The notes under the pieces: model-generated | Database searches by the model: none | What the model saw: the letters and a program-made list of their open reading frames with translations, nothing else | Told to the model about the DNA's origin: nothing | NCBI GenBank assembly: GCA_963724105.1 | Contig: CAVRTD010000002.1 | Span: 29,650-93,649 of the forward strand | Source: Terriglobia bacterium | Lineage (GTDB): Bacteria; Acidobacteriota; Terriglobia; Terriglobales; Acidobacteriaceae | DNA length: 64,000 nucleotides | Direction: 5' to 3' | In this document: positions 28,556 to 63,418 of the stretch, piece after piece | How positions within the stretch are numbered: position 1 is the stretch's first letter | Layout: each line of letters begins with the position of its first letter | Program-made: the position numbers and the translations under genes

Positions 28556-28650
28556 TTCATACGATGAATTCATGAGTCGGAGTGCAGAAGTGCTTCTGCA
28601 AGCTGAGAGCTGCTTCTGCACATTCGAACAAAAAATGGCGCGGGACAGAA

Positions 28651-30330: not shown

Positions 30331-30343
30331 TGGAGGTAGAAGC

Positions 30344-31591: not shown

Positions 31592-33910
31592 GTGCCTGCC
31601 TTATTCAACGAGTCTTTCTCCGTGCGCAACATCCTTCAGTCGGGGAAAGTGCGGCTGCAGGCATTCAGGCACAAGGTTATTCCGCGTCAATCGGCGAACT
31701 TGCCGGAACCTGAGCCGGGGCAGGCTCCGGCCTCTACTTTCGCAAATACAGCCTTTAAGACCAGCCGCAAGAAAACTCCTACTGTCTTGCAAATGGAGGC
31801 GGTGGAATGCGGAGCCGCGGCGCTCGCCATCATTCTTGGATACTTCGGCCGCTTTGTCCCACTGGAGGAATTGAGAATTAGCTGTGGTGTTTCCCGCGAC
31901 GGCAGCAAGGCTAGCAATGTGGTAAAAGCAGCGCGCACCTATGGACTCGCCGCAAAGGGTTACAAAAAAGAACCGCAGGAATTGCGTGATGTTCCCCTGC
32001 CTGCAATCATCTTCTGGAATTTCAATCATTTTCTTGTACTCGAAGGGTTTGGCAAAAAGAAAATCTACCTGAATGATCCGGGATGCGGCCCCCGAACCGT
32101 GAGCTACCAGGAATTTGACGAAGCATTCACCGGAGTAGTTCTGGCCTTTGAAAAGACGCCTGCGTTCGAGCCTGAGGGACGCAAAGCAAATATCTTCAAA
32201 TTCCTGAAGAGCCGCCTTCCGGGTAGCCGTCTCGCTCTCGCCTATATCATTGTGAGCACTCTGGCGCTGGCCGTGCCCAATTTAGTCATTCCAATTTTTT
32301 CCAAGATATACGTCGATAACTTGCTGATTGGTGAGATGAAGAGCTGGCTGGCGCCGCTCGTCACAATCATGGTACTGGTGGCCCTGCTGAAGGGAACACT
32401 TACGTATTTGCAGCAAAAAGCGCTGCTCCGTCTGGAGATGAAATTATCGCTTGGCGCTTCGGGAAAGTTCTTCTGGCACGTGCTTCGTCTGCCCATGGAT
32501 TTTTTTTCCCAGCGGATGAGCGGCGAAATTTCCCAGCGCGTGGACATCAATGACCAGGTGGCCATTTTGCTTTCCGGTGACGTGGCCACCAACATGGTGA
32601 ACATTTTGCTGATCGGCTTTTATGCTGCACTGATGTTGCGCTATGACGCGGGCCTCACTTTCATCGGCATTGCCATCTCGCTGTTGAATTTAGCTGCTCT
32701 TCGTTACGTCTCTCGCAAAAGAGTGGATAGCAATCGCAAACTGCTGATGGACCAGGGCAGGATGATGGGAACCGCCATGATGGGACTACAGAGCATTGAC
32801 ACCCTCAAAGCAACCGGTGGCGAAGCACACTTTTTTGCCCGCTGGGCCGGGTACCAGGCAAAGGTGGTCAATGGACAGCAGGAGTTAGGTGTCTCATCAG
32901 TATGGCTCTCCGCCGTCCCTCCCTTTTTGACCGCGCTCAATTTCACCGCCGTTCTGGCCATTGGATCCGTTCGAGTGATGAACGGAGTTCTGACTGCTGG
33001 CATGCTGATCGCTTTCCAGAGCTTGATGGGTAGTTTTATTGATCCGGTGAACAAGCTGGTCGATCTTGGCAGCAAACTGCAGGATGCGCACGGCAGCATG
33101 CTGAGACTTGATGACGTTGCTAACTATCAGGCAGATCCGCAGGTCCCGGCGACAGTGAACGCATCCCCGGAGCCGGAAGAAGTTCAGCGCCTGGCCGGAT
33201 ACCTTGAGCTGCGCGGAATAACCTTCGGATACAGCCGGCTTGATCCTCCACTGCTCAAGAACTTTGACATCAGCATTAAGCCCGGTCAAAGAGTGGCCCT
33301 GGTTGGCGGCTCTGGAAGCGGAAAGTCCACAATCGCCAAGATCGCTGCCGGCCTGTATATCCCGTGGGAAGGGGAAATCCTGTTTGACGGTAGAGCGCGC
33401 AACACGCTTCCCAGAACTGTGCTGGCCAATTCCATTGCTGTTGTTGATCAGGACATCTTCTTATTTGAAGGGACACTGCGAGACAACCTCTCCATGTGGG
33501 ATAACACGATCGAAGAGGAATCATTGGTTACCGCGGCCAAAGATGCCTGCATCCATGATGAGATTACCCGTCGTCCTGAGGGATATGACTCCATTGCGAT
33601 GGAAGGGGGAAAGAATTTCTCAGGTGGGCAGCGGCAAAGATTGGAGATTGCCCGGGCGCTGGCTTCTGATCCCAGGATCCTGATTCTGGACGAGGCCACC
33701 AGTGTTTTAGATTCAGAAACTGAAAAAATTATCGATGATCATTTGCGCCGGCGCGGCTGCACTTGCCTGATCGTTGCTCATCGCCTCAGCACTATCCGTG
33801 ATTGCGATGAAATCATCGTTCTCCAACGTGGGCAAGTTGTCCAGCGGGGCACCCACGACGAACTGGTTAAGGCCGGCGGGGCCTATTCCGAACTGATTAA
33901 GGCGGCTTGA
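31592..33910 (+). CDS. C39-peptidase-domain ABC transporter (double-glycine leader cleavage/export)
   Basis: The C39 motif is [21 protein letters not shown] (catalytic Cys), followed by ..NHFLVLEG... A 6-TM domain follows. Walker A is GGSGSGKST, the signature is FSGGQRQR and Walker B is [12 protein letters not shown] start right after the HlyD stop. Confidence 0.9.
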
Positions 33911-33912
33911 TT

Positions 33913-36819: not shown

Positions 36820-37991
36820 TGGATAACCTACTGAAGTTTCGCGCCGAAGTACTAAACTCTTGCGGAGCCAGCAGTTCAGAAACCCAGGAACTCCTTGCCT
36901 ATAGTGATAACCGCTTTGACCACGCAGGGCTGGCGGAGATCGTGTTTCCTCTTGCTGATGAACCTTTTGTGAAATCCTGGAAAGCCTATGGAGAAGAGGT
37001 TACAGCAGCGGGCACTTTCTCAATCCTTGCGAAATACCTCGTCCAGTTACGGTTTCCCATCAGGACAGGCATGAGTCAGGATCCTGATTATCTTGCGGCT
37101 ACCACCAGAGGCACAGGCTTTGCAACGGATGGGCCCCTGGGTCTTCCACTGATCGCACCAGAGAAATGCCACGTTGTCCTGCACCCGACTCCGGCCGGCC
37201 ACATACCATTGTTGATTGCTGAAGAGCGCATGGACTTCGTATTGCTGGTACAGGCACTTGCCAGGCGCAACGAACCGACTCCTATTCCGGCTTCCATGGG
37301 CGCCTGCATGGTCAGCGGCTACAACAACTGGGATCGAGTCTTCCAGGTTGTCCAGAAAGATGGAGCGGCACGATCCCTGAATCCTTCCGATTATCAGGAT
37401 CGTTTTATCATTCTTAGCAAAGGCTACTATAGCGGGGTGGAGCCTGCCGCTATGTCTCTCCAGGAACGCGAGTGGCGTGAACTATCCTTGATCATTCGGC
37501 GAGAACATGAGTCAACGCACTACTTTACGCGGCGGGTATTCTCCTCCATGCGTAATAATTTGCTCGACGAAATCCTCGCTGATTATTGTGGGGTTGTTAC
37601 AGCTACAGGCCGCTTCCTTCCAGACTGGATGCTCCGCTTCTTTGGCCTGGAACATTTTCCGCACTATCGTTCAGGCGCAAGGCTGGAGAACTATAAGGGT
37701 AAACCGGCGCTTTCCGCTGGCGCTTTTTTGGTTTTGCAAAAGCTCGTCAAGCAGGCGATTGACAACCTGGGCGCCATGAATGCCCCGATAGCAAAGAGTG
37801 ACTGGCAAAGCTCTCCATTCCCGCTGCTTGGGTTGCTGGCCTTGTCCAGGTTCACGCTGGAGGAGCTGGCTTCCGGCGACGCGCCCGATCTAATACAGGC
37901 TGAACTCTTGCGCCTGGAAACTGCCGGCATCGGCTCGCGTCGATCCATCAACTACGATCCACACACAACATCATTAGGCCAGGCTGGGTGA
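36819..37991 (+). CDS. unknown protein with HExxH motif, translationally coupled to the ABC2 gene
   Basis: 390 aa. The ATG shares a base with the upstream TAA (TAATG). The sequence REHESTHYFTRRVFSSMRNNLLDEILADY contains HESTH plus a downstream Glu, compatible with a gluzincin-like site. There is no signal peptide or TM. Confidence 0.5.
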   Translation: MDNLLKFRAEVLNSCGASSSETQELLAYSDNRFDHAGLAEIVFPLADEPFVKSWKAYGEEVTAAGTFSILAKYLVQLRFPIRTGMSQDPDYLAATTRGTGFATDGPLGLPLIAPEKCHVVLHPTPAGHIPLLIAEERMDFVLLVQALARRNEPTPIPASMGACMVSGYNNWDRVFQVVQKDGAARSLNPSDYQDRFIILSKGYYSGVEPAAMSLQEREWRELSLIIRREHESTHYFTRRVFSSMRNNLLDEILADYCGVVTATGRFLPDWMLRFFGLEHFPHYRSGARLENYKGKPALSAGAFLVLQKLVKQAIDNLGAMNAPIAKSDWQSSPFPLLGLLALSRFTLEELASGDAPDLIQAELLRLETAGIGSRRSINYDPHTTSLGQAG

Positions 37992-46702: not shown

Positions 46703-47992
46703 TTACTCCCAGGAAAGTACAGAAGGTAGTAATTCCGGTTTCGCCGCCCTAAGGAGTTGATAACCGATGCCCGCGAGGCCCTTGTGAAATGTAAGAGGGG
46801 TATTGTCATTGCTGCGACCGAATCCGTAGCGCCCCCTGGTGATGGCGCGGCGCGCAACGGAGTTTGCCAACAGGACGGCCTGTTGCTTATGGCGCTCGAT
46901 TCCAAGTTTGCGCGCAGCCTCAAGAAAAAATTCGACACGTCCCAAAGTCCCACAGCACGGAAAATCGATATGGCTCAGCGTGCCAGACTTAGCTGCTGCT
47001 CGAAGGCATCGGTCAATATCCGCGCTGACCTCCGCCTGATCGAGACAAGAGCTATTGAGCCTGCCAAGGCCAATTCCTGGAGCGCCATTGCACCAGCTAT
47101 TCCAGCATTGATAGCCGCCCTGCTCCCGGGGCAGCAGTAGATGCGGCCAATTCCCTTCATCCTCACAGTAAAGGCTGTTCTCATAAGCCAGGGCTTCCGC
47201 TGCAGCATCCCGAAAGCTTGACTCTCCCGTAATCTCAAAGAGCCGGCAGAGAGCTTGAATTATTCCCGCAGCGCCATGCGCGTATCCGGTTTGGCACTTG
47301 CCTGGTGAAGTTTCCCATGCCCTCAGACCAGACGAGGTAGTAATGCGGGCGCGGAGCAGATGTTTACCCCATAGGGCTGCCTGTTCGATCATCCACGGTT
47401 CGGGAGCAAGACTATGAAGTGATGCACAAACTAATGCGCAGCCAGCGGATCCTCCCATCAGATCGACTCCACGCGCATTAACGATTCTCTGGTGAGGAAA
47501 ACGGCGTGCAATTCGGATTGCGGCTGAAAGCAACTCCTCATCGCCCATAAACGTGGCGATTCGCGCAAGGGAGTAGATGATCGAAAATGATCCCGTTCCG
47601 GCGCCTACGCCATCCCGCGCAAGCCAATCATCAACCTGTGTCGACGAAAGAGTGCGCAGCGGCTGCACTACGGCGCAAACCAGTGACCGGTACTCAGTTT
47701 TTTCAGAGATGTGGTCTAAAGCGGCAAGAAACAAACAAATTCCGTATGTTCCACCATACAAGTCGTGGCCAGAGAACTCTCGTCCACCGGACCAAGGATC
47801 ATGTTGCAGACGCCCTGTCCACGGAGCTATTCCACCCTCCGCAAAACTGGGCGATTGGGACACGATCGCACCAATGGCTGCGGCTTCATCAAGCAGCAAG
47901 CAATGAGCCCGACTAGCTTCTTCCTGATGGACTTCTGACGCGAACTCATTACTGTCGCGTTTATGAGTAGGCAACTCGATGATAGTTTTCAT
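46703..47992 (-). CDS. lanC: LanC-type lanthionine cyclase with Cys-Cys-Gly zinc motif
   Basis: Start at MKTIIELP (47992); the track ORF is extended upstream. Motifs are GYAHGAAGI, NSWCNGAPGIGL and FPCCGTLGRVEF, the last at the position of the usual CHG. Repeated GxxG helices are also present (GGTYGICLFL, GLAGIGYQLL). Confidence 0.85.
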   Translation of the reverse strand: MKTIIELPTHKRDSNEFASEVHQEEASRAHCLLLDEAAAIGAIVSQSPSFAEGGIAPWTGRLQHDPWSGGREFSGHDLYGGTYGICLFLAALDHISEKTEYRSLVCAVVQPLRTLSSTQVDDWLARDGVGAGTGSFSIIYSLARIATFMGDEELLSAAIRIARRFPHQRIVNARGVDLMGGSAGCALVCASLHSLAPEPWMIEQAALWGKHLLRARITTSSGLRAWETSPGKCQTGYAHGAAGIIQALCRLFEITGESSFRDAAAEALAYENSLYCEDEGNWPHLLLPREQGGYQCWNSWCNGAPGIGLGRLNSSCLDQAEVSADIDRCLRAAAKSGTLSHIDFPCCGTLGRVEFFLEAARKLGIERHKQQAVLLANSVARRAITRGRYGFGRSNDNTPLTFHKGLAGIGYQLLRAAKPELLPSVLSWE

Positions 47993-48020
47993 AAGGACAG
48001 ATCCGCAAAAAAATCTGCGA

Positions 48021-49382
48021 TCACATCCGAGATTCAGTTTGGCCAGGTTTCCAGAAAGACACTTTCGGCCTCCACCTGGCGTCGGAGCCCGATGGTAGGC
48101 TCTTTGATTCGAAAATGTCACTTCCGCTTCGAAGGAGAATCGATGCAAGCCTTGTAGTCTCCTGAGAGATGGCTGGATCGATTGGCGCACCATCCGTCAA
48201 GTCAGACCAAAACGCACTTTTTTTGCGTAGATCTACATTCAACACAAAAAGGTATGCGGCCGAAGCCAAAACAAGGTGGTGATGGAACCCTTTCCATGAC
48301 CGTCCCTGGTAGCAGCCCAGATCCAGATCACGTTCAAGACAGCCCTGGTACTGCTCCTGATACGAACGATGCCGGCTCAACCGGAGGCACATGGTTTCAG
48401 TTGGCCGTTTGTGGAAACGCGCGAGGTAACAACGATAAGGTTGTGCCTGCCCGTCGGGCCAATCGACAACAAACCAGAGTCTTTGGAGGCTGCTACTTAT
48501 CCCATGTAGACCGGAATCCAGGAAGACCTCGCGAATTGCAAGCCGCGTTTGCCGTGAAGTACCTTCACGCGTAGCCCAGGAGCAGCGCGACCATTCTGCG
48601 GCCCCGATTTTTTGCATGATTTTTTCCAGCGTGTATGGATGCGGCTGCAGGCTCGAATTCCATTCAGGCGTGTTGGACTGAAAATCCCAGGCAATATTCG
48701 TTTTTGGATCCACTTCCAGAAAGAATTCCATTCCAGCGTGCAATAAGGCTGAACGAAAATCGGCGTCGTTGCCGTAAGCAGCATCGCCTACCAGCGGCTT
48801 GGGATGGAGCCCGTCACCGGTCACTTCCCGCAATAGTGCTAGCACAAGGGATGACCGTGAGGGAAAACATGCATCCTTGGGGACCCCGGACCGCGACAGT
48901 CTCGATGACTCGGCAGCCCAGTCTGGCGGGAGATACAGCCGTGCAGCAAGCGGCGCCGCGAACGATCCATCACTGGCCAGTATCTCCACGCTGATCTGGC
49001 AACGGGACTTCTTGCCATCCGCGCCACATCGCTGGTTTGATACGCCGACAGATTCATTCCCCTGCTTTGTCCATGCTCTCTCATTCACCACCCAGCGATC
49101 GACCGGTTCAATAGTGGGAATGATTGCTCTACGTATGCGCGTCCAAACCTGTTGATCGTCCCATGGGCTGTTTGCAATCGTCTGATGCAGGCTCTGGGAG
49201 TCTACTTGCAGCCGCTCGGCAAGAGGACGAATGAATTTTCTTCTTCCGGGCAGCAGCAGGCCTTCAATGTATCTGGCGGTGGCGACCCGCCGCTCCTGCC
49301 TGCCGATGCTTTCCAGCAGCGTGGAGAGATAGCGAGTCAGGTAGGGAATATTTTCTTTATATGTTGCCAGTTCCCACTTCAT
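48021..49382 (-). mobile_element. IS701-family-like DDE transposase gene, apparently degenerate, no terminal inverted repeats found
   Basis: Start MKWELATYKEN with RBS GGAGG. The sequence WVVNERAWTKQGNESVGVSNQRCGADGKKSRCQISV...ARLYLPPDWA...VGDAAYGNDADFR...GCYQGRSWKGFHHHLVLASAAYLF follows the IS701 DDE_5 layout. The first catalytic position reads N-E-R where I expect D-D-T (motif recalled from memory). Confidence 0.65.
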
Positions 49383-49452
49383 AAATTCACGACCTCCCCT
49401 TCCGACCCACATCATGGTTCCCGAATTTCCGCGGTCTGGGCGAACATAGCGT

Positions 49453-50535
49453 CTAAGCAGACGCCTTCCACAAGATCGGCGACCGCATTGCGAACTCTAA
49501 AACCTCATCCATCGACTGATCCTGAATGGGAACGGGAAGCGCCGAATGGCGCAGCCACAGGAGACGCCATGTTCCGGGATACCATTGGCGCAACCTCTCG
49601 ACCCCGCGCCACAACAGTCGCGAGAGGTACACCTCTTCAGGGTTGTTCAATCCAATCCGATTGGCAGTCATGTGAATGTGGCTTGACGTAATGGGCCAGT
49701 GGGCTTGCCGGGAAAGACCGCTGATCTCAGCAGCCAGGCCCCGGCTAATATTCACCAGGCTGGACGGCTCACAATTTTTGCTGGCACACACGGACTCAAG
49801 CTCTGCGATTACTAATTCTGTAATCTGCTTTTCCTGCCGCGAAAACACAAGATCAGCCTCCCGAATACAAGGCTCCAGCGAATCACCCCATGCCTCTGAG
49901 GCATACGCGGCGAGCCGGACAAAATCTTCTTCGTCACCCGCCAGTCCCCAGGCAAGTTGGAGGGCCAGACGCATCATCGCGGAGTTAATCCAGTCACGAC
50001 GGGAATTGCCGCGTTCATCCAGCATTTTCAGGATAGCCAGACTGGAGATGCAAAAAAGATCAATCGAGGCGCCGATATGGTCTGCGCCTCCATAGCGATT
50101 GATTTCAAACACAGGGGTAAACTGCCGCCATGAATTGTCCGCGTAGACACGACTAACGTCCGCTCGTGCTGCCGGATCAGTGGTTGCAATCGCCCGGTTC
50201 GTAGCCAGGATCTGGTCCTGAGCAACCGGCGCTTTAGAAGGATACTTGTCAAAAAAACCGGCAGCGCGCTTTTGTAGAACTTCCTCCGCGCGTCCACTGG
50301 TATTTTCATCTTTCAATCGCCAGCGCAAACGGAGATGAGGGCCTCCAAGCGAGTACCGGACAAAATAAAACCGGTCGATCACTCCCAGGCTAGCCAGTTC
50401 GAGCATGAGCGGCCACGCCAGTTCCCGCAACATTCTGTCGCGATCGGCATGATAGAACACGTGGTATGCGCGCCAGCGCAGCAATGAATCTGGGCACGTG
50501 CCACCATTAGATTGACCTATAAGTTGCGTTGCCAT
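49453..50535 (-). CDS. stand-alone LanB C-terminal (SpaB_C / thiopeptide-type) elimination-domain protein
   Basis: LLRWRAYHVFYHADRDRMLRELAWPLM...IDRFYFVRYSLGGPHLRLRWRL and the C-terminal SSHIHMTANRIGLNNPEEVYLSRLLW match the Lant_dehydr_C / TIGR03891-type pattern (W..Y...; FF.RY..GPHLRLR; H.h.NR). Confidence 0.8.
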   Translation of the reverse strand: MATQLIGQSNGGTCPDSLLRWRAYHVFYHADRDRMLRELAWPLMLELASLGVIDRFYFVRYSLGGPHLRLRWRLKDENTSGRAEEVLQKRAAGFFDKYPSKAPVAQDQILATNRAIATTDPAARADVSRVYADNSWRQFTPVFEINRYGGADHIGASIDLFCISSLAILKMLDERGNSRRDWINSAMMRLALQLAWGLAGDEEDFVRLAAYASEAWGDSLEPCIREADLVFSRQEKQITELVIAELESVCASKNCEPSSLVNISRGLAAEISGLSRQAHWPITSSHIHMTANRIGLNNPEEVYLSRLLWRGVERLRQWYPGTWRLLWLRHSALPVPIQDQSMDEVLEFAMRSPILWKASA

Positions 50536-51395
50536 GCGTAGAGAATAATTGGGATTTCTTGTAATACGATTTGCCCCAATTGCAGCAGAGTGAAGTGGTT
50601 GATCGAGCGCAGGAGACCGAACCCCTGAGCGAGAGAAGACTTTGATTGCGAGACGATCAGGAGAACCAGTCCGTCCACGTCCACCGAGAGGTCAGTTTCT
50701 TCATTCCATATTTCGGAAAAGAATTTCTGATTTGCCCGCGAGACGGCTTTTTGCAGCCATTCGCTTGACATCTCTGGCCGTTCCTTGATGCTTTGCTCCA
50801 GCCCGAACAGAAGACTTCCAGCATGGAAGCGCCAGTAGTCCGCGGGCGGAATTTTTTGCCTTTTCAATGATCGATCAACCGCTGCCAGCCAGCGAACCGC
50901 TGCTCGTGAGACGTTGCCGCCAGCTTGCTCCAAGGCCCAGAAACATACCTGGTCGATGCGCTCCCAGAGTTCATCTGCCGCAGCAACGCCGGCATTGAGC
51001 AGAAAGGGATAGCCATTGTGTTCATGCTCAAAAATCTGAAAGGAGTTGTTCAGGGCTGAACCTGGCTCTCGATCAGCCAGATTCATCGTCCTGCCCCTGC
51101 ACCCGCCGTGCCGTTCAGACACTTCCTGAGCGCTAAGTTGTGCGTGGCTTGGATAACGGGTAATAAATTTCTGAATATTGTCCTGGAGATAGGTCTTAAC
51201 GCAGTCTCCTCCGGCGGTTGTGGTGGTGAAGATGCCGAAGACGTGCGGGCTCCGCGCGTCATACGGGCAAAACCAGAGCCGCTGCAGCAATCCCTGCCGA
51301 CGGACATCGTGCGCCCACGCGTTGAGTCCGTGTTGCAGGAGGCGCTGCTGGTCCTCCATTCCCCAATAATAGATATTAAATCCGATATTCGTCAT
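50517..51395 (-). CDS. divergent SpaB_C-like paralogue (start uncertain)
   Basis: NIGFNIYYWGMEDQQRLLQHGLNAWAH...LQRLWFCPYDARSPHVFGIF and the C-terminal LLRSINHFTLLQLGQIVLQEIPIILYAW are collinear with the SpaB_C pattern. The canonical GPHLRLR and H..NR residues are replaced. Candidate starts are at 51395, 51419 or 51359. Confidence 0.5.
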   Translation of the reverse strand: MTNIGFNIYYWGMEDQQRLLQHGLNAWAHDVRRQGLLQRLWFCPYDARSPHVFGIFTTTTAGGDCVKTYLQDNIQKFITRYPSHAQLSAQEVSERHGGCRGRTMNLADREPGSALNNSFQIFEHEHNGYPFLLNAGVAAADELWERIDQVCFWALEQAGGNVSRAAVRWLAAVDRSLKRQKIPPADYWRFHAGSLLFGLEQSIKERPEMSSEWLQKAVSRANQKFFSEIWNEETDLSVDVDGLVLLIVSQSKSSLAQGFGLLRSINHFTLLQLGQIVLQEIPIILYAWQRNL

Positions 51396-52077
51396 AGATG
51401 CCGGGGCCGCTCGACTCATAATCGATCGCAATAGTCTCAAAACGAAAGAAGCTGCGGATAACACGATCGTAGAAAGGCATTCTTCGCTCTTCTTCCATGA
51501 CCATGCATAACTCTTCAAAGAAGGCAACGTTGGGCTGGCGAATCGAAAGAAAAAGACTACGGAGCGTCGAATAAAAAACGGCTGGACCGTGGGGCGTCTC
51601 GCAAAGAGGGGTGCGGTCCGTAAGCATCGCCTGCACGCGGCTGATGTGGCTATGCATTTCTTCCCATTTGCGCTGATTGCGCGCCACGCGAGCCTGGTTA
51701 ATACACAGGTCGGGACACTGCAGGGCGAATGGAATCAGGAATTCATATTCCTCTGCGGCCATGGCGACGGCCCTGTGTGCCCATTTCATCGACTCGCTTG
51801 CGCTCGCGAAATCTCCTGCTCGGTAGTGGTATAGGCCAAGAGTCTTGTAGTAAGACTGGTCAAGCACAACTCGAACCGAATTGGGTATGTCGACAGCTTC
51901 CAGAGCGCCACCGGCTTTCTGCAGAATGTTTCCGGCTTCCTTTATTTTGTGCGAACGAAGAAGCGGCATCGCGCTGTTGATCAGGCGCAAGATGTGGCAG
52001 TGACGTTTATATTCCCCAACCCATGCGAGCCCGGCATCACCGGTGCGCTCGATAAATTCAATCAGGATATCTGCCAT
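51376..52077 (-). CDS. unknown helical-repeat protein, paralogue 2 of a tandem pair
   Basis: 233 aa. It shares blocks with 52138-52809: YHYRAGDFASASESMKWAHRAV vs YFYSVGNFQQARESMNQAHDAV; QARVARNQRKWEEM vs QARIARNQRRWPEM; FYDRVIRSFFRFETIAIDYES vs LFDQFVRRMLRFQEIGIEYQS. No TM or signal peptide. Confidence 0.6.
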   Translation of the reverse strand: MADILIEFIERTGDAGLAWVGEYKRHCHILRLINSAMPLLRSHKIKEAGNILQKAGGALEAVDIPNSVRVVLDQSYYKTLGLYHYRAGDFASASESMKWAHRAVAMAAEEYEFLIPFALQCPDLCINQARVARNQRKWEEMHSHISRVQAMLTDRTPLCETPHGPAVFYSTLRSLFLSIRQPNVAFFEELCMVMEEERRMPFYDRVIRSFFRFETIAIDYESSGPGIYDEYRI

Positions 52078-52137: not shown

Positions 52138-52809
52138 TCAAGATTGATATTCGATGCCAATTTCCTGGAATCGCAGCATGCGCCGGACAAATTGGTCGAA
52201 GAGGCGGCTTCGTTCTTCCTGGTCTACTATTTTGGCGGCTACACTGGATTCTTCAGTCGTCATGTCGCCGATCTGCGCAAAAAAACTACGAAACGCGGAA
52301 AAATATATTTTTTGACCATTGATTTTTTCGCACAAAGGAACATGGTCCAGCATCATTCCCTGTGCCTGCGCGACGAACGTATTCATTTCAGGCCAGCGGC
52401 GCTGGTTGCGCGCGATTCGCGCCTGATGAAGACAGAATTCCTGACAGTGCACCGCCAGCATGATCAACCAGTCCGCACTGCTGATGGCTCTTTTCACGGC
52501 GTCATGCGCCTGGTTCATTGATTCGCGGGCCTGCTGAAAGTTGCCCACGGAATAGAAGTAATAGCCGGCAACGCCGTGGTGCCAACGGTAGAGCACTGCG
52601 CTCACAGAATCTTGTTCGCCTCTCATCGCGGACAGATGATGCGCAAATTCCCGCAGCACTCTTCCCCCTTCTTCAATCTCGCCCTTGCGCATCAGAGCCA
52701 GCGCGCGATCGCTGAGTGCAACGGCAGGCAAGTGCCGGCGATAGGCGGCAGCCCAATCCTGGCCAGCGCTGCCAGTACGCTCGGCAAAATGAAGCCAATC
52801 ACATGCCAC
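52138..52809 (-). CDS. unknown helical-repeat protein, paralogue 1 of a tandem pair
   Basis: 223 aa; see the paralogue at 51376-52077. It is the first gene after the precursor-gene terminator. Confidence 0.6.
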   Translation of the reverse strand: MACDWLHFAERTGSAGQDWAAAYRRHLPAVALSDRALALMRKGEIEEGGRVLREFAHHLSAMRGEQDSVSAVLYRWHHGVAGYYFYSVGNFQQARESMNQAHDAVKRAISSADWLIMLAVHCQEFCLHQARIARNQRRWPEMNTFVAQAQGMMLDHVPLCEKINGQKIYFSAFRSFFAQIGDMTTEESSVAAKIVDQEERSRLFDQFVRRMLRFQEIGIEYQS

Positions 52810-52886
52810 GATTCAATTCCTCAATTCCCGCTGGATTCACGGTAGTCACTTTTTGACATCAACAGGTCCATTGGATAGATAAAAGC

Positions 52887-52920
52887 CTCTGGGACAGACA
52901 TCAAACCGCCTGTCCCAGAG
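52887..52920 (-). terminator. intrinsic terminator/attenuator hairpin after precursor gene A1
   Basis: CTCTGGGACAG (52887-52897) pairs perfectly with CTGTCCCAGAG (52910-52920), giving an 11-bp stem and a 12-nt loop. On the minus-strand RNA the hairpin begins 35 nt after the TGA and is followed by GCUUUUAUCUAU. Confidence 0.55.
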
Positions 52921-52954
52921 AAAACAAACAACTTGCAGCCTGGCGAACGAGATA

Positions 52955-53110
52955 TCAGCCAGAGCAGACGTTAGCGGAGCAGGATGCGATCGGGCAAGGT
53001 TCAAGAACGCCGCCGGAAACATCTTCCAGCGCCTGATCGGACAGTGGTTCAATCTCAACATCTTGTTTTTTTTCTGGAATTGCATTTGGATTGGTAGCTT
53101 TGTCAGACAT
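52955..53110 (-). CDS. lanA: lanthipeptide-type precursor A1 (51 aa), not in the ORF track
   Basis: Hand translation: MSDKATNPNAIPEKKQDVEIEPLSDQALEDVSGG|VLEPCPIASCSANVCSG*. RBS AAAGGAAAAAAC precedes the ATG. The leader is double-Gly type and the core has 3 Cys and 3 Ser. The 79-aa track ORF 52846-53085 is the wrong frame. Confidence 0.8.
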   Translation of the reverse strand: MSDKATNPNAIPEKKQDVEIEPLSDQALEDVSGGVLEPCPIASCSANVCSG

Positions 53111-53295: not shown

Positions 53296-53451
53296 CTACG
53301 CTAGGTCGCCAGAGCAAACATTTGCGGAACATGAAGCGATGGGGCAGCCACCGGAAGCATCTTCGAGCGACTGGTCGGAAAGTGGTTCGATCTGAACGTC
53401 ATCCTGTTTCTTTTCGGGGACTACATTTGGTTTATTGGGAGTGTTAGCCAT
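53296..53451 (-). CDS. lanA: lanthipeptide-type precursor A2 (51 aa), not in the ORF track
   Basis: Hand translation: MANTPNKPNVVPEKKQDDVQIEPLSDQSLEDASGG|CPIASCSANVCSGDLA*. RBS AAAGGAACAACCATC precedes the ATG. It shares the CPIASCSANVCSG core block with A1. Confidence 0.8.
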   Translation of the reverse strand: MANTPNKPNVVPEKKQDDVQIEPLSDQSLEDASGGCPIASCSANVCSGDLA

Positions 53452-56399: not shown

Positions 56400-56615
56400 A
56401 GAACTGCTCCAGAAACTGCGTTATTGAGCTTTACCTTCAGGGCTGTGTCGAGAACTTCCACATGATGCCGGCAGCTCACGAAATCTCGCAAAGTGGAAGC
56501 GGACGTGCGCGGCCGGCACAAATGCAGTCGATTCAAACAGGCAAAATTGGATGGAGAAATCGTTTCAGGAATTGGTTAAATCTCGCGCCAGGCAATGGCG
56601 GTGATCAAGCGCAGC

Positions 56616-56765
56616 TCACCCTAAGTCTGGAGGCCCACACAAGGGTGAACCAGTTTCAGTACCGCCTGAAACTTCCTCAAGAGCGGCGTCGGAAAGGGGT
56701 TCGATTTCAGCGTCTTTCCGGCTCTGAATTGACTTGCCAGGCTGTTTTTTTTCCTCGTTTGGCAT
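56616..56765 (-). CDS. lanA: third precursor A3 (49 aa) with the same leader box, different core
   Basis: MPNEEKKQPGKSIQSRKDAEIEPLSDAALEEVSGG|TETGSPLCGPPDLG*. Start at the internal ATG 56765 of track ORF 56616-56810, with RBS GAAGGGA upstream. Confidence 0.7.
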   Translation of the reverse strand: MPNEEKKQPGKSIQSRKDAEIEPLSDAALEEVSGGTETGSPLCGPPDLG

Positions 56766-56831
56766 TTTTTTATCCCTTCGTAATAGATTTATGGGGCCTT
56801 GTGGTCGCAAATGAAACGCTCGTTGATGGAC

Positions 56832-57854
56832 TTACACCCGCGCAAGCTCCTGCGCAGGCACAAGACTATGATCTTCTACCGCTTTAATCAGAAGATGGTG
56901 CACATAGGCCTCATGCAGAGGTGTTACCCCAAATTGATTCGCCATTCCGTGCAACATCTTGAACAGAGGCGGAAAGTTCACGTTCGTAGTGAACGGATCA
57001 ATCTGATGTTCGCCGGAGCCGGCAAAAGATTGCGTATAAGCTGACAATGCCGCAAAGGTCCGCAACCACGGCTCTACTTCCTGGGCGCCGCTGTTGCGCG
57101 CCCACTCTTCATCACTGAGCTGCGCCAGCTTTGTTCTGGCAGTGCTGGAACCGGCTTGGGCATCAAAATGTGCACGAATCTCCAACTCTTTGCTGGATTC
57201 GGAAATGAAAAACCGCAAAAGCCAATCGCGATGAAAGGCAAGATATTCTGTCGCGCTGGTTCGATCACCAAGGCCAGAAGCACCCAGAGCCGAGATCAGG
57301 CTTTTTGCCAACAGAGATTGCTTGCTGCCATCCGAAAGCTCGCCCTGCTCATCTACGGCGGTGAGGAACACGCCAGTTGTTGCCGCAAGGCAACGACAGG
57401 CAAGGGCGACAAAATTTTCGTCTTCGAGCCAGGGTGACGCAGGAAGCGACACGTAGCTGCGTCCATAGGTTGTGGCGAGAAAGTTACGATCGGCGAAATC
57501 AGAATCTACTTTGTCTTCAGCGTCAATGGGTGGGGCCTTGGGATTACTTACACGAGGATCAGCCGCCAGGTAAGTGCGCGCTTTCTCGATCCACTTTTCT
57601 ACGTGGCTGTGCAGCAAAGGCCTCAGTGAATCCACCACAGCCCGCTCACCGTGAAGCCGAATCTTGAGGTGCTCCCCACCACGCGCGTAACGCATAATCC
57701 AAAGCCAACAATCCCCATCTGGCCGGACGCCCTGCATGTCACGCCAGAACGGCACAATCCCTTGCTGCAACAGGTTGTCCACCAGGCCGCTGGCATAAAT
57801 ATTTGCGGTTAAGATTGGATCTGCCGAATTGAGTGAATTAAGCATGTCCTTCAC
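56832..57854 (-). CDS. third SpaB_C-like (LanB C-terminal-type) paralogue
   Basis: ILTANIYASGLVDNLLQQGIVPFW...CWLWIMRYARGGEHLKIRLHG and the C-terminal LFKMLHGMANQFGVTPLHEAYVHHLL are collinear with the SpaB_C pattern. Confidence 0.65.
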   Translation of the reverse strand: MKDMLNSLNSADPILTANIYASGLVDNLLQQGIVPFWRDMQGVRPDGDCWLWIMRYARGGEHLKIRLHGERAVVDSLRPLLHSHVEKWIEKARTYLAADPRVSNPKAPPIDAEDKVDSDFADRNFLATTYGRSYVSLPASPWLEDENFVALACRCLAATTGVFLTAVDEQGELSDGSKQSLLAKSLISALGASGLGDRTSATEYLAFHRDWLLRFFISESSKELEIRAHFDAQAGSSTARTKLAQLSDEEWARNSGAQEVEPWLRTFAALSAYTQSFAGSGEHQIDPFTTNVNFPPLFKMLHGMANQFGVTPLHEAYVHHLLIKAVEDHSLVPAQELARV

Positions 57855-57932: not shown

Positions 57933-58472
57933 TCAGGCCACGGAAACGTTTTGAAAATGTTGCTCAGGCGCGGGCAAGGGAACGTACCCACCGAGATCGA
58001 CAACGACGGAACTGCGAACGACTTCAATCGATAGAACCAGCCGATGCTGATTACGGTGACTCTCAACAACGCCTTCAATCCCATCAAAAGGGCCACCAGT
58101 AATCCGCACTCTGGAACCAATCTCTGCATACTCGCACGGTTGCATCTGGTATCCAGACTTGACAGCTGATTGAATTGCGCTGATTTCGTGGTCAGGGATG
58201 ATAGCTGGAGATTTAGCAGTACCGAGAATACGTATGACGCCTGGGGTCAACAGGATGGGACCGCTACCCATAGCCTTGATGCGACAAAATACATATCCGG
58301 CAAATAATGGAAGCTGTATTTCCTTCCATCGATCAGACCAGCGCCTGCGTACAACATAAGAAGGAGCAAATGTCTCGTAATTCTTTTCCGACAGGAGTCG
58401 CGCAGCAGTGAATTCATGCTGGTACCGTACGTAGATCGCACACCATGCGCTGTCATACTGGCTGAGGTCCAT
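57933..58472 (-). CDS. specialised NusG paralogue (RfaH/LoaP/UpxY-like antiterminator), first gene of the operon
   Basis: Start MDLSQYDSAW with a strong RBS GAAGGAG. The NGN-like N-terminus is WCAIYVRYQHEFTAARLLSEKNYETFAP. The KOW motif is IGSRVRITGGPFDGIEGVVES. Confidence 0.8.
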   Translation of the reverse strand: MDLSQYDSAWCAIYVRYQHEFTAARLLSEKNYETFAPSYVVRRRWSDRWKEIQLPLFAGYVFCRIKAMGSGPILLTPGVIRILGTAKSPAIIPDHEISAIQSAVKSGYQMQPCEYAEIGSRVRITGGPFDGIEGVVESHRNQHRLVLSIEVVRSSVVVDLGGYVPLPAPEQHFQNVSVA

Positions 58473-58921
58473 ACCGTCTCCTTCGGTCAACGTGAGTTTG
58501 CCGATACAGATGAATCGCACACTCTTCACCTCAAGCGGATGGAAAACAGCAGGACGTAATCTTTGTATAGAGGTGTGAGGGAGCCACCGGTTGCGGCAAG
58601 GCAGGCTGCCGCCATTTTGAGTCCCAACTTCTTACTCATTCACTAACCCTTACCGGGCCAGTCACAGTGAGAATTAGCAATGCCATTGCCAAAGCATGCG
58701 TTCTATGAAGAACCGTGCTTTCCATTGTGCATTTTGATTCACAATGATTATGTTTGTGATGGTGATTCCCACTTTGAAATTATGGATCCGCTGCTCGTTC
58801 CGCTTTTAGTTGGAGTTCAACGACTATCATTTCCATTCTGGTTGACGATTGCTGCGGTGCCGGACAGGAACAACCGTAAAGGTGGCAAATTTAATTTTGT
58901 CCGACTTATCCTCAGCCAGGC

Positions 58922-59068: not shown

Positions 59069-60331
59069 CTATTGGATGGGGGTTGACGGCGTGAATTTTG
59101 GAACCATAATCACGATGTCATATCCAAAAATAAGCCGCTCCAGCTCTTCATCAACTGGGCCAAGCGCTTTAAATCTCCGGCGAAGGCCGCGAAGATCGTA
59201 GAGAGTCCAGCCTTCCGGCAATCGATGGTCCACCAGCGGCTTAATGAAAGAAACCGCAGAACTTGTATCCTGTACCAGATCAAAATTCTCCAGTTGCGGT
59301 GGCTGGCCGGGCGCACCAAAACTGATCTCTGCTCCCTTCACTCCAATGATGTTGATATGAAGAGAGGTGGAATGATGGCCTTCTGCCAATTCAGCCACAA
59401 AATTGCCCAGATCGTCGTTATGTAGAGGATTAATCCCCTTATAAAGGTGGGCGGAGCCAAACTTGAGCAAGACTTTGGCGGGTTTTCCCTCAGCCCGCGT
59501 CTGGTCATCATAATAACGGGCGAACAACGCCTTCATCATTAGCGCCCGCTGAAGGTTGGAATCATAAGCTTCACCCTGCAGATATTTGTGGTAGATATCG
59601 CGGCTTTCGATGAAGGCATTCAGAATGGCTTGCGAAGCCGGATTCCCTTCCCGAGCCACCGAGTTCTTAAGTTCCAGAATCTCGCTGTCCGGCACAGACA
59701 GCATAAAAATATCGTTCACTTTCCCCGAAGCCACGGTCCGCGCATAGGCTTGATCATTTTCGCGGAACATCTGGCGTATTTTGGCAGCCGCCGCCTTGCC
59801 GGGATGAGAATTCAAGAGGCTCTGTAGCAAAAACCTGGACTCTCCGTAAAACTCCTGATCAAGCCCCCATATATGGAATTTTTCATTTTCCGCAGTATGG
59901 CTGCAATGGGCCAACAGATCTGTTTCCTCCTGAAGACGATAGAATGGGAGGGCGTCTGGAAATTCTTTCTGAAACTCAGCAACCTGGTGGCGTGAATCCG
60001 TGGAGCGGGCCCACTTCTCTAATTGGCCGGCCATCATTGGGCCGGTTTCAATTGCCATGGAATGAAACCCTTGCGGAACGGCAAGGTCACATATTGCAGA
60101 AGAGAACTCGGGGGTTTCCGCATTGCCGTGTTGTTCACCGATGAGCACAAACTGGGCGGAGGCAATGGCCTTGCGCAGAACCTCAGCTCCTGCGCCAGAT
60201 AAATGCCCATCCTTCAGGTTGAGATCATAGCGGTTCTCAAGAAGTTGTTTTCCGAGTTGTTCCTGCGCCAACATACATCCAAGGCCGGCAATTCCTAGAA
60301 ATACCACAGCCGCCAGTTTGGTGATCACCAA
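59069..60331 (-). CDS. secreted Tiki/ChaN/erythromycin-esterase-superfamily-like protein
   Basis: 420 aa with a signal peptide (AAVVFLGIAGLGCMLAQ). FVLIGEQHGNAETPEFSSAICDLAVPQGFHSMAIETG resembles the GE.H(G)..E...Gf...E N-terminal signature of that superfamily (recalled from memory). The gene follows lanKC by 80 nt. Confidence 0.45.
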   Translation of the reverse strand: MVITKLAAVVFLGIAGLGCMLAQEQLGKQLLENRYDLNLKDGHLSGAGAEVLRKAIASAQFVLIGEQHGNAETPEFSSAICDLAVPQGFHSMAIETGPMMAGQLEKWARSTDSRHQVAEFQKEFPDALPFYRLQEETDLLAHCSHTAENEKFHIWGLDQEFYGESRFLLQSLLNSHPGKAAAAKIRQMFRENDQAYARTVASGKVNDIFMLSVPDSEILELKNSVAREGNPASQAILNAFIESRDIYHKYLQGEAYDSNLQRALMMKALFARYYDDQTRAEGKPAKVLLKFGSAHLYKGINPLHNDDLGNFVAELAEGHHSTSLHINIIGVKGAEISFGAPGQPPQLENFDLVQDTSSAVSFIKPLVDHRLPEGWTLYDLRGLRRRFKALGPVDEELERLIFGYDIVIMVPKFTPSTPIQ

Positions 60332-60411: not shown

Positions 60412-63111
60412 TCAGGATCCGACGTGCATTGCAACCAGCGCCTGTTCTTCTTCCGAGAATAAAGTACCATCTCTTGCAAACAAGGAGTCAAGCATAAAAT
60501 CGTTTTGCTGATTTCCAAGCAGGCGGTTAAGAAATAGAGCAATGCCTGCGCTTCCTGTACCGAAATCACATGACAGCCTGAATAGTGAATTTCCGGGAAA
60601 TGCGATTCCCTTCCGTTCCACACGGAAATTCATTATTCCCTCTGCAAGTCTGGCAGCACTTTCCCGATACCGGGAGTGTGCGGTCAGGTCGTGCATGTCG
60701 AGAAGAAACTCGCCGATGCCTGCCAGGCCAGTGAATCGTCCTGCAAAAACCGCGTATTTCCGGTCGGTATCCAGATAGATCTTATCCAAAACCTGTTCAT
60801 AGCAGGATTCACCGAGCAGTCGGTAGTAGCGCGCCGTTGCAATCCCGATTCCAGCACTCCCGTGCTGCCAGTATGGATAGACCGGCGACGTTGATCCGGT
60901 TGACATGGGCCACGTAAGTCCCGCATCTTTATTTTGCAATCCGAAACTCAGATCAAAGTCCAAAGCACGCCGCCCAACATAAAGAAAGCGCTCATTCTTT
61001 GTTGCGAGATAGAGGTAGAGCAGGAACAGAGCAATGCCGGAAGATCCGCGGGCAAGGCCGAGAGGCGCACCTTCGCGTTCACCCCAGTAGCAGCCGCGTC
61101 CGTCTTCTTTACACTGCTCGACAAGGTGATTCCCGGCTTGCACGGCGTGCGCAAGGTAAACTCTGTCGTTCGTAGCCATCCAGAAACGCAGGTCTGCCAT
61201 CCCCCACCCGGAAACGCCATGGAAGAGATCGCAAGCATCAAAAGCCAGGGGATGTGTATGGACCTGGCGCATTGCAGTCTCTGCTTCTGCCTGCAACCCC
61301 ATTTCAAGCAGACTCCATGCAATTCCAGCGAGCCCGATATACAGACCTGGAGCATATGTCCCATGCGTCAAACGCTTGTTGCTGATCCACTGCAGAACAC
61401 GGGAGGGCACGCCTCCTGTGATTTTGTGCCATGCATAAGCCACACCACATGCCCCAAAAGCGAGGCTGAGCGGGTTGGTAGCAAAGAGCCTGGCATCGGC
61501 CGGAAACAGCCTATCTTCGCGTTCATACGTTACCGTACTCTTCCAGTGGTCGACGATGCGCTCCAACACGCAAGGGTAGTTCTCCCGCCTGAGTTCATGC
61601 ACGGGCTCCACTTCGACGCTGGAATCTTCATCCATCAGGCAACCGAGACGGGCGGGTGTTGTAGGCTGACCTGGATCATGATTCATCAATCCAATAATCA
61701 TGCTTGTGATTGATCTGGGCAGTCGAGAATCCTTGCGTATCGATTCCATCAGCTCACGAATCGCTTCTCTTTTAAGTTGAATGAGGCCATTCCAGGGAAA
61801 AAGGTAGGCAAACAGGACCGCTCCAAGCGAATAGTAATCACTTTCAATGTCGGCAGGCATACCCTGGAGTCGATTCGGCGAGACGAATCCAGGAGTAAAA
61901 AGATTGGTGGGACGATCAATCTCTTTCTGGTAAGCACCTTCGAAGTCGATAAGCTTCAGGGAAGTGCCGCCGGCCAATACCATCACATTATTCGCGGAGA
62001 GATCCGCGAAGACGATGCCACGGCTATGCAATACTTCGATCATCCGGATGAGATTCAGAGAGATTTCAACAAAGGTCCGCTGCCATTCGACATAGTCTGT
62101 CTGCAAAGGCCTGGTGCGGAGCAAAATATTGTGCGCCGCGGAGTAACGGCCCAGTACCATTCCGTCAATGTATTCTTCAACTAGGAACCAATGCTCCCAA
62201 TCCTGGAAGAGATCCACGGGTTGCGGGGCTATTCCTGTATCGGCGATGACTGTGAGCAGGCGGTGTTCCTTCTTGAGCAGTTCCACCGCATCGTAACCGT
62301 CAAACGATTCATTCACGAACGGCCGGGCTTCCTTGATCACGACGGGCTGCCGGGTGAGATGGTCAAACGCCTTATACACGCCTCCGGCATTGGAAAAATC
62401 AATTACACTTTCGATCGTATAACGCCCTTGCTTAAGAGTTGGGCTGGCTTCGTTGTTGTCCGCTGGCTCGTCTGGAGCCAGTGGACCACATACCCAGTCC
62501 GGCGTAATGGGATACGGAAGCCTCTGATCGGGGACTGAACTCCCGTCAGGGGTGATAAGAACGGGAACACTCTCGCCTTTTACATTCAGCTTCTCACGGA
62601 GGCGCATTCCACCGTATCGATAGAAAACAACGCCACTATCTTTATAACGGCGATCTGAGAGAATGTAGGGCCCCTGGAATCCCTTAAGTTCTTGACGCAG
62701 GGATTCAATCAGTTCCAGAAAGCAATGGTCATTTTGAGGGTAGATGGTAATGAATTTGGAAGATCCCCCTCGAGGGAAGTTTTTGCCGTTCACAAGCTGC
62801 AATACCCGCAGATCCAGGGAAAATTTAAACGTGGTGTCCTGACGCTGGAGGAGCAGTGCGCTCACGCGATCCAGCACTTCACGCGCATTTGCCAGCGAGC
62901 TGGAAACATGTATCTTCCAACCCTGGTATGGACAGAGATTTTGTTGTGAGGAGCAAACAAACCAGAGCTGTTGCCGGCGAATCTCCCATCCCCCTGACAA
63001 CCGAGACGAGACTAGGTCATAAAAATCCTTAGTGCGCGGCACATAGTAGTCAAATGTTTCGTCATAATCGCTTTGCACCAGGCTATAAAGCCCATATGCT
63101 CTGGTTCGCAT
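60412..63111 (-). CDS. lanKC: class III lanthipeptide synthetase (lyase - kinase - Zn-ligand-less cyclase)
   Basis: The lyase motifs are QGWKIHVSS and SKFITIYP. The kinase motifs are GGVYKAF..VVIKEA, FADLSANNVMV and KLIDFEGAY. The C-terminal LanC-like repeats (GSSGIALFL, YWQHGSAGIGIA, CDFGTGSAGIALFL) lack the WC and CH zinc ligands. The probable start is MRTRAYG (63111, RBS GAAGGGA); the track gives a TTG at 63132. Confidence 0.85.
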   Translation of the reverse strand: MRTRAYGLYSLVQSDYDETFDYYVPRTKDFYDLVSSRLSGGWEIRRQQLWFVCSSQQNLCPYQGWKIHVSSSLANAREVLDRVSALLLQRQDTTFKFSLDLRVLQLVNGKNFPRGGSSKFITIYPQNDHCFLELIESLRQELKGFQGPYILSDRRYKDSGVVFYRYGGMRLREKLNVKGESVPVLITPDGSSVPDQRLPYPITPDWVCGPLAPDEPADNNEASPTLKQGRYTIESVIDFSNAGGVYKAFDHLTRQPVVIKEARPFVNESFDGYDAVELLKKEHRLLTVIADTGIAPQPVDLFQDWEHWFLVEEYIDGMVLGRYSAAHNILLRTRPLQTDYVEWQRTFVEISLNLIRMIEVLHSRGIVFADLSANNVMVLAGGTSLKLIDFEGAYQKEIDRPTNLFTPGFVSPNRLQGMPADIESDYYSLGAVLFAYLFPWNGLIQLKREAIRELMESIRKDSRLPRSITSMIIGLMNHDPGQPTTPARLGCLMDEDSSVEVEPVHELRRENYPCVLERIVDHWKSTVTYEREDRLFPADARLFATNPLSLAFGACGVAYAWHKITGGVPSRVLQWISNKRLTHGTYAPGLYIGLAGIAWSLLEMGLQAEAETAMRQVHTHPLAFDACDLFHGVSGWGMADLRFWMATNDRVYLAHAVQAGNHLVEQCKEDGRGCYWGEREGAPLGLARGSSGIALFLLYLYLATKNERFLYVGRRALDFDLSFGLQNKDAGLTWPMSTGSTSPVYPYWQHGSAGIGIATARYYRLLGESCYEQVLDKIYLDTDRKYAVFAGRFTGLAGIGEFLLDMHDLTAHSRYRESAARLAEGIMNFRVERKGIAFPGNSLFRLSCDFGTGSAGIALFLNRLLGNQQNDFMLDSLFARDGTLFSEEEQALVAMHVGS

Positions 63112-63226
63112 ACATAATCCCTTCGTGCTCAATACTTGTAGCGAATCCTAAATACAATTTTGCGGCCGGCGATCTGGCGCCGAATATTCAACCTTGCTCC
63201 TGTTTTTCATTTCCAATTCCTGCAAA

Positions 63227-63277: not shown

Positions 63278-63418
63278 TTACTCATGATGAAGTGGACTGG
63301 CCTCTTCTGCTTGTACCGTAGGACAAATGCCGCTCGCTGTACTCATCAACATCTCTTCTCCAGCTATAACGTCCGGGGCCCATGTGGTCAACTTTTGCAG
63401 CGCAAGGATGTTACCCAT
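63278..63418 (-). CDS. class III lanthipeptide precursor (46 aa), not in the ORF track
   Basis: Hand translation: MGNILALQKLTTWAPDVIAGEEMLMSTASGICPTVQAEEASPLHHE*. A strong RBS AGGAGAAAAATCT precedes the ATG. ILALQKL matches the class III leader ILxLQ box. STASGIC is a Ser-x-x-Ser-x-x-Cys unit. Confidence 0.75.
   Translation of the reverse strand: MGNILALQKLTTWAPDVIAGEEMLMSTASGICPTVQAEEASPLHHE

Follow-up and report, generated by a model that had tools for sequence, protein, structure and literature searches.

Can one set of lanthipeptide-modifying enzymes serve two unrelated core peptides that are brought to it by the same leader? The question is raised by a stretch of 64,000 nucleotides (the window) on contig CAVRTD010000002.1 of an uncultured Acidobacteriota bacterium (Terriglobia; GenBank assembly GCA_963724105.1). 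A reading made before any database search (the sequence-only reading) had marked in it a short gene, A3, as a third precursor that shares a leader box with two others, A1 and A2, and had offered two options: one enzyme set serving divergent substrates, or a specific pairing of A3 with the SpaB_C-like paralogue encoded next to it. As judged from the comparison of related loci, A3 is a real, conserved gene under purifying selection. We consider it fairly probable that A3 is the translated precursor of a class-I-type lanthipeptide pathway (split LanB plus LanC). It would then most likely add to a known pathway type, as one more lanthipeptide-type precursor, with a core that diverges from those of the other precursors in its cluster.

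The A3 open reading frame (ORF) occupies positions 56616–56765 on the minus strand (49 residues, with the stop codon included in these limits), from an ATG at 56765 to a TGA at 56618–56616, and encodes MPNEEKKQPGKSIQSRKDAEIEPLSDAALEEVSGG followed by TETGSPLCGPPDLG. The leader box EIEPLSDAALEEVSGG is common to A3 and A1/A2. Comparison of A3 with A2 by BLASTP gives an E value of 8e-10, with an alignment that covers the leader and stops where the core begins, and a degenerate back-translation of the box matches A3 and A2, where none is expected (100 shuffles); the proposed tie between A3 and A1/A2 is thus upheld. In a six-frame motif scan of the window, this type of leader was found in A1, A2 and A3, the sole other match being an unrelated NHLP-type peptide at 28244–28555. 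The A1 and A2 genes share the ribosome-binding site AAAGGAA, at a spacing similar to that of A3. The statement that the A3 core has two Thr, one Ser and one Cys is correct, and the core is without the CPIASCSANVCSG block of A1/A2. The claim that the cores are unrelated is essentially right, the only faint echoes being an x-P-[I/L] sequence that follows the first nucleophile and, in common with A1, D-L-x at the C terminus (CSGDLA in A1, PPDLG in A3).

Homologues were collected by a protein search, by searches of related loci (numbered L001 and so on below) and by a profile search run exhaustively over 1.84 billion representatives. The protein search returned three metagenomic homologues, each called with the start of A3, and the same ORF was found independently by gene callers in other assemblies. 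Seven distinct A3-type cores were obtained in total, from soil metagenomes: TETGSPLCGPPDLG, TDTGSPLCIPPDIV, NETGSPLCAPPDLV, GDPTGSPLCGPPDIV, ADQAPTGSPLCTPPDGA, ADQAPTGSPLCPPPDEA and GDPTGSPLCPPPDTL. The motif T-G-S-P-L-C-x-P-P-D is unchanged in all seven, with start and frame kept; Thr38, Ser40 and Cys43 are invariant, in S-P-L-C spacing, and the first Thr of the core is not conserved. Variation falls on the two to five residues following the Gly-Gly pair and on the last two residues (LG, IV, LV, IV, GA, EA and TL).

The codons tell the same story. Compared with L079, whose enzymes are about 64% identical to those of the window, the ten codons of the core motif comprise three identical, six synonymous and one non-synonymous (at position x), and those of the leader box six identical, ten synonymous and two non-synonymous, while the N-terminal part of the leader has four identical, two synonymous and 11 non-synonymous. 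Comparison of the window with L003 counts 12 codons as identical, 14 as synonymous and five as non-synonymous, and in this locus the A3 ORF aligns to the window, whereas the flanking intergenic DNA does not. The codon pattern and the restriction of the alignment to the ORF therefore point to selection on the peptide itself, and an opposite-strand gene (141-residue ORF at 56462–56887, plus strand) would not be expected to leave such a pattern. The comparison of the spacer in related clusters, suggested by the sequence-only reading as a check, thus shows the ORF conserved and in frame. An upstream extension from a TTG codon, MRPQGPINLLRRDKK, had been put forward as a possible alternative start and does not survive the same comparison: L003 and L079 have in-frame stops no further than 6–10 codons from the ATG, the TTG is out of frame in L001, and a ribosome-binding site is placed before the ATG as in A3 (AAGGA in L001, AAAGGA in L003 and GAAGGGGGAG in L079). 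We rejected the extension for these three reasons, and the start is settled as the ATG at 56765. Folding of the RNA of the spacer between A3 and lanB shows nothing significant (z = -0.8), the spacer has no meaningful Rfam match, and a scan of it for a terminator consensus was empty.

As announced by the sequence-only reading, A3 lies between a SpaB_C-like gene (Lant_dehydr_C) and lanB (Lant_dehydr_N) (Table 1). It is encoded on one strand with this LanB-N protein, three Lant_dehydr_C-like proteins (named SpaBC340, SpaBC336 and SpaBC360 after their lengths) and a LANC_like protein, and the synteny is kept in relatives. The division of LanB into a transferase and a separate lyase is an established arrangement (PMC9890492; also PMC7268733). 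From this gene content we infer the chemical steps, the position of the ring and the choice of lyase as follows. The EIEPLSDAALEEVSGG box, common to A1/A2, would dock A3 onto the same modification enzymes; the 918-residue LanB-N protein would activate Ser40, and probably Thr38, by way of Glu-tRNA; a stand-alone SpaB_C-type lyase would remove the glutamate to give dehydroalanine (Dha) or dehydrobutyrine (Dhb); and a ProcM-like ‘CCG’ LanC would join Cys43 to Dha40 in a four-residue lanthionine ring (Ala-Pro-Leu-Ala). Finally, a C39-peptidase ABC transporter (PCAT) would cleave after Gly-Gly and export a product some 14 residues long that carries a single ring and ends in a Pro-rich tail. SpaBC360 is the likeliest lyase, since its Lant_dehydr_C match is the strongest and the minimal cluster L087, which has an A3-like precursor, carries this SpaB_C type alone.

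We favour a single enzyme set serving divergent cores, because the leader is shared, the LanC is of the CCG, ProcM type, and clusters holding two core types recur in the family. The LanC of the window resembles the C-terminal cyclase domain of LanM (275 bits), and the CCG motif is found in 29 of 29 LanC homologues of the family. This motif marks the ProcM-type three-Cys zinc site, which has been proposed as the basis of promiscuity (PMC10783134), and by this sign the family LanC looks promiscuous. Verified multi-precursor clusters also share leaders (PMC7268733). The first option of the sequence-only reading is thus favoured, indirectly, and the second, the pairing with SpaBC340, is not supported by the distribution of the genes described below.

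Double-glycine leaders follow the consensus L(-12) S(-11) x x E(-8) L(-7) x x I/V(-4) x G(-2) G(-1). The A3 leader ends with L S D A A L E E V S G G and thus agrees with LSxxELxxIxGG at six of seven positions: L(-12), S(-11), L(-7), V(-4) and the two Gly. The PCAT of the window is a candidate for both the protease of this leader and the exporter of A3. In L087, the same set of transporter genes lies about 1 kb downstream of the A3-like precursor, from which one NHLP-type gene separates it.

Where does A3 come from? The hosts of the SpaBC340 family are Acidobacteriota (Thermoanaerobaculia, Candidatus Angelobacter, Holophagales) and Longimicrobiaceae, and the usual gene order is LanC, SpaBC340, LanB-N, precursors, at least one gene of the 223/233-residue type, SpaBC336 and SpaBC360. 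The leaders follow the pattern ..[LI]E[IV]EPLSD..LE.VAGG and the cores nearly always contain C-S-x3-C-[S/T]: CSANVCS in A1/A2 and, elsewhere, CSCSSCS, CSWDDCS, CSQQLCS or CSGRDCS. In all, 49 SpaBC340–LanB junctions were observable, some of them on redundant contigs. An A3-type gene is present at complete junctions only where SpaBC340 is at least 64% identical to that of the window; a contig of 522 bp, L089, contains SpaBC340 (68%), an A3-type gene and LanB (68%) in this order. The contigs of L082 (56%) and L083 (52%) end inside a leader-like ORF at the position of A3, and L084 (52% identity) has no A3-type gene. In about 40 more distant loci SpaBC340 is present and the junction peptide absent. 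The junction gaps that hold no precursor mostly measure 24–190 nt (124 nt in L084 and L085), and in L030 and L059 a SpaBC336-type gene occupies the interval. The distant locus L028 has two C-S-x3-C-S precursors at this junction, and in all eight precursors with three core types at three positions (1305–1707 and 4920–7375); arrays of several core types therefore arise repeatedly in the cluster family.

For every precursor at the position of A3 whose upstream region is on the contig, a NusG/UpxY gene immediately precedes SpaBC340, in the place that LanC takes in other clusters, and the contigs that reach further upstream also carry the gene of a 420-residue protein. A3 thus came in with a clade-specific rearrangement. 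On balance, we see A3 as a clade-specific addition to an old and widespread Acidobacteriota/Gemmatimonadota cluster family with C-S-x3-C-S cores, probably derived from an A1-type gene. Related Pro-rich cores are found elsewhere in the family. In L086 and L090 (LanB 64% and 58% identical), precursors with the family leader and the cores DITPLCSPDCPPVG and TDPGVLCSPDCPPVT, respectively, come directly after LanB and precede the C-S-x3-C-S precursors. In L087, the sole precursor has the core TVVKSGLCIPPTTGVGS and lies beside LanB, a 360-type SpaB_C gene and an OEP–HlyD–PCAT set, in a locus with no 340-type protein. A [S/T]-P-x-C sequence recurs in these related cores (TPLC and SPDC in P0047, SPDC in P0049), and every relative of A3 found adjoins a LanB gene. 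In L079 (14693–14860; also L035, 5468–5635), two A1-type genes flank an ORF that resembles a precursor gene; its leader, TELSDQALEHVSGG, is degraded and its core, AGGATGAGALGLEQSEEETQI, contains no Cys. This ORF may be a paralogue in decay. Literature searches on the leader, the TGSPLCxPPD core and Acidobacteria split-LanB clusters returned nothing specific, and the cluster family appears to be uncharacterized.

Several points weigh against a lanthipeptide precursor processed in this way. The relatives of A3 are all metagenomic, and A1, A2 and A3 have no Pfam or NCBIfam family match and belong to no curated class I leader family. With a single Cys, one conserved Ser and one conserved Thr, A3 could form one ring at most, and this ring might alternatively join Thr38 to Cys43. 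A transposase gene splits LanC from the operon, and in L087 no LanC is found within 8 kb of the precursor. The PCAT, HlyD and OEP genes of the window (28582–33910) are 20 kb from A3 and adjacent to a different, NHLP-type precursor. Lastly, each cluster encodes three SpaB_C-fold proteins, a number that the proposed pathway does not explain. The best Foldseek matches of the AlphaFold2 model of SpaBC340 (predicted local distance difference test score of 92.8) are the pyridine synthases TbtD/PbtD (E = 7e-9, template-modelling scores of 0.6–0.69), with the elimination domains of MadB, MibB and NisB ranked behind them. As modelled, SpaBC340 is structurally nearer to the TbtD type than to LanB elimination domains, so the chemistry of the family may differ from plain lanthionine formation.

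Among the alternatives, the one that survives best, unlikely as it seems to us, is that A3 is exported and cleaved after Gly-Gly without being modified, as a bacteriocin-like peptide or a signal, with its Cys free or disulfide-bonded and with the leader serving for export. A double-glycine leader and a PCAT are indeed present, the core is short, Pro-rich and has one Cys, precursors at the position of A3 always co-occur with NusG/UpxY and the secreted 420-residue protein, and there is no LanC near the L087 precursor. Yet A3 is embedded in a modification operon, between two dehydratase components, its Ser, Thr and Cys are invariant with the classic S-P-x-C ring spacing, and all of its relatives stand beside a LanB gene. 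Were A3 such a peptide, a role in the regulation of the cluster, alongside the UpxY-type antiterminator, would be conceivable.

The dedication of A3 to SpaBC340, for a core-specific step such as another stereochemistry of elimination at Thr38 or a non-lanthionine reaction, is improbable in our view. The two genes are immediately adjacent. Proteins with the SpaB_C fold can bind leaders and perform other chemistry, TbtD being the best structural match here and one of the matched TbtD entries containing a leader fragment; moreover, syn and anti elimination at Thr by distinct lyases is known (PMC9890492), and the A3 motif has a conserved Thr where A1/A2 cores have none. However, SpaBC340 is common to all related clusters of the family, whereas A3 is rare; it adjoins LanB in the roughly 40 loci without a junction peptide, the cores of which are mostly Ser-only, the Pro-rich precursors of L086 and L090 are located after LanB, and L087 combines an A3-like core with a 360-type SpaB_C only. 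The adjacency is explained by the insertion of a gene into a pre-existing SpaBC340–LanB junction. The position of such Pro-rich precursors relative to SpaBC340 is not fixed and a specific pairing is therefore not supported; we rejected it on the distribution of junctions and on L086, L087 and L090.

We give a similarly small chance to the idea that the cluster family does not make plain lanthipeptides: the TbtD-like 340- and 336-residue paralogues would carry out new chemistry on the C-S-x3-C-S cores, and TGSPLCxPPD would be a distinct second product. The family cores might undergo a [4+2] reaction, which A3 cannot, because it has one conserved Ser only. If so, the paralogues that act on A3 would be another subset than those that act on A1/A2, and the product of A3 could be a two-component partner or a signal tied to the UpxY antiterminator and the 420-residue protein. 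Alignment with hhalign of the SpaBC340-family profile with the 360- and 336-residue paralogues showed weak N-terminal similarity only, which makes the three proteins old paralogues; phmmer searches of all three against PDB sequences gave nothing usable. SpaBC336 is the conserved partner of the SpaBC360 gene in related loci.

Far less probable is a role of A3 as substrate for the class III/IV-type synthetase (LanKC), whose gene lies further upstream in this region and on this strand; in favour of it, the core also contains Ser, Thr and Cys. A peptide at 63278–63418 (MGNILALQKL...MSTASGICPT) has a class III ILxLQxL leader and a S-x2-S-x2-C core, both of which are missing from A3. It is conserved in L083 (2064–2207, core region ...EDMLMSTASGICPT) and is probably the own precursor of the synthetase, while L079 keeps A3 with no LanKC homologue in its 21-kb locus; on these grounds we rejected A3 as a LanKC substrate. 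An artefactual ORF, or an upstream ORF that only regulates lanB, as its shortness and the long spacer of 216 nt might suggest, is hardly credible: purifying selection centres on the leader box and the core motif, gene callers agree on the ORF, and the spacer has neither significant RNA structure nor an Rfam match.

Table 1. Features of the window, numbered from its first nucleotide
Feature	Position	Strand	Remarks
A3 precursor gene	56616–56765	-	49 codons + stop; leader residues 1–35, core residues 36–49
A3 leader MPNEEKKQPGKSIQSRKDAEIEPLSDAALEEVSGG	56661–56765	-	double-glycine-type box; ends at predicted cleavage site
A3 core TETGSPLCGPPDLG	56619–56660	-	
Invariant core motif T-G-S-P-L-C-x-P-P-D	56625–56654	-	encloses predicted Ser40-to-Cys43 lanthionine
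Ribosome-binding site GAAGGGA	56773–56779	-	7 nt 5' of A3 ATG
Candidate class III precursor	63278–63418	-	46 residues, MGNILALQKLTTWAPDVIAGEEMLMSTASGICPTVQAEEASPLHHE; directly upstream of RamC_N-kinase-LanC gene
RamC_N-kinase-LanC enzyme (class III/IV-type synthetase)	60412–63132	-	
420-residue secreted protein	59069–60331	-	N-terminal signal-like segment
UpxY-family NusG-like antiterminator	57933–58529	-	heads operon; NF033644 109.6 bits (cutoff 100)
SpaBC340 (SpaB_C fold, 340 residues)	56832–57854	-	Lant_dehydr_C E 2.9e-11; directly upstream of A3
LanB-N glutamylation-domain protein, 918 residues	53643–56399	-	half of split LanB; Lant_dehydr_N E 4e-23; directly downstream of A3; synteny kept
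A1 precursor, core CPIASCSANVCSGDLA	53296–53451	-	
A2 precursor, core VLEPCPIASCSANVCSG	52955–53110	-	
Hairpin terminator	52886–52921	-	15 bp, strong, after A2
223-residue protein	52138–52809	-	
233-residue protein	51376–52077	-	paralogue of 223-residue protein, 36% identity
SpaBC336 (SpaB_C-like, 336 residues)	50517–51527	-	divergent; weak Pfam and NCBIfam matches
SpaBC360 (SpaB_C-like, 360 residues)	49453–50535	-	Pfam E 2.3e-32, strongest Lant_dehydr_C of cluster; TIGR03891 81 bits
DDE_5 transposase	48021–49415	-	
LanC (LANC_like)	46703–48193	-	Pfam E 1.2e-50; WCNG and CCG zinc-ligand motifs
C39-peptidase ABC transporter (PCAT)	31592–33910	+	
HlyD	30167–31591	+	with PCAT
OEP	28582–30330	+	with PCAT/HlyD

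Some of the neighbouring genes deserve comment. The 420-residue protein has no Pfam or NCBIfam match, and a relaxed Pfam search with this and the 223- and 233-residue proteins gave sub-threshold TPR matches only. It is kept (49–67% identity) upstream of NusG/UpxY in L079 and L083, a gene for 422 residues stands there in the contig of P0002, and its presence tracks the A3-containing clade. Genes of the 223/233 type are found in one to three copies in most related clusters that reach downstream of the precursors; their products might be a leader-binding or scaffold component. The DDE_5 gene lies between SpaBC360 and LanC, and its counterpart at the same position in L079 (18752–20140) is 80.6% identical, above the 57–68% identity of the flanking biosynthetic genes of the two loci. 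It is either an old, strongly constrained and possibly domesticated insertion, or tied to the relocation of LanC in this clade. The transposase ORF overlaps the annotated start of LanC, the true start of which is probably Met68, at 47992. At the transporter locus, the peptide at 28244–28555 (plus strand) is an NHLP-like precursor of 103 residues (TIGR03793, 39.7 bits, below cutoff) that ends with ...LTDEDLEEVAGG and then CVLASTI; it stands directly upstream of genes for OEP, HlyD, the C39-ABC protein, a second ABC protein of 970 residues and DUF7005 (28582–37991). Comparable NHLP peptides whose cores are rich in Pro and Gly (DDGWGGGTTPPPGGGG, SNTPPPPPPDPPVGLS) occur near the related clusters L012, L023, L027, L030–L032, L084 and L087.

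TGSPLCxPPD is a previously undescribed conserved core motif for lanthipeptide-type precursors of uncultured soil Acidobacteriota. The cluster offers a natural test, with one split LanB/LanC set, two unrelated cores and one leader, which is useful to work on enzyme promiscuity and to peptide engineering; being short and with a single Cys, A3 would be the easiest substrate for assigning the roles of the paralogues. The wider family, with three SpaB_C proteins, a CCG LanC and C-S-x3-C-S cores, is probably the more interesting target.

How does A3 compare with known systems? Like the class I LanA of split-LanB clusters (pinensin, SapT), it is a small leader–core gene among genes for Lant_dehydr_N, a separate Lant_dehydr_C and LanC, with Ser/Thr N-terminal to Cys in its core. 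Its leader, however, is of the double-glycine and not the FNLD type, its core is very short, Pro-rich and able to form one ring at most, and its cluster has three SpaB_C-fold paralogues instead of one and a LanM-like, CCG LanC. It is also unlike the scaffold peptides of peptide aminoacyl-tRNA ligases (PEARLs), whose conserved C terminus is extended by a LanB-like ligase and whose clusters have no elimination domains, since its last two residues vary and its cluster encodes three elimination-type proteins. With thiopeptide and pyritide systems it shares the split LanB and, through the best structural matches of SpaBC340, TbtD/PbtD; among the cluster genes examined, neither a YcaO protein nor azole machinery turned up, and with one conserved Ser the two Dha needed for cycloaddition are impossible in A3. 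Ring B of nisin and epidermin is Thr-Pro-Gly-Cys, and S-P-L-C in A3 likewise spans i to i+3 and has Pro as the second residue of the predicted ring; A3 lacks ring A and the lipid II-binding pyrophosphate cage, and with one Cys only no functional analogy with nisin is implied. Lastly, the prochlorosin systems (ProcM/SyncM) resemble that of A3 in their conserved leader with divergent cores in one cluster, CCG cyclase, predicted Gly-Gly cut with C39 ABC export and NHLP-type peptides nearby. They differ in that dehydration would here be carried out by a tRNA-dependent split LanB (class I) and not by the kinase-type domain of a LanM, and the A3 cluster has three precursors with two core types and a short leader that is neither NHLP nor Nif11.

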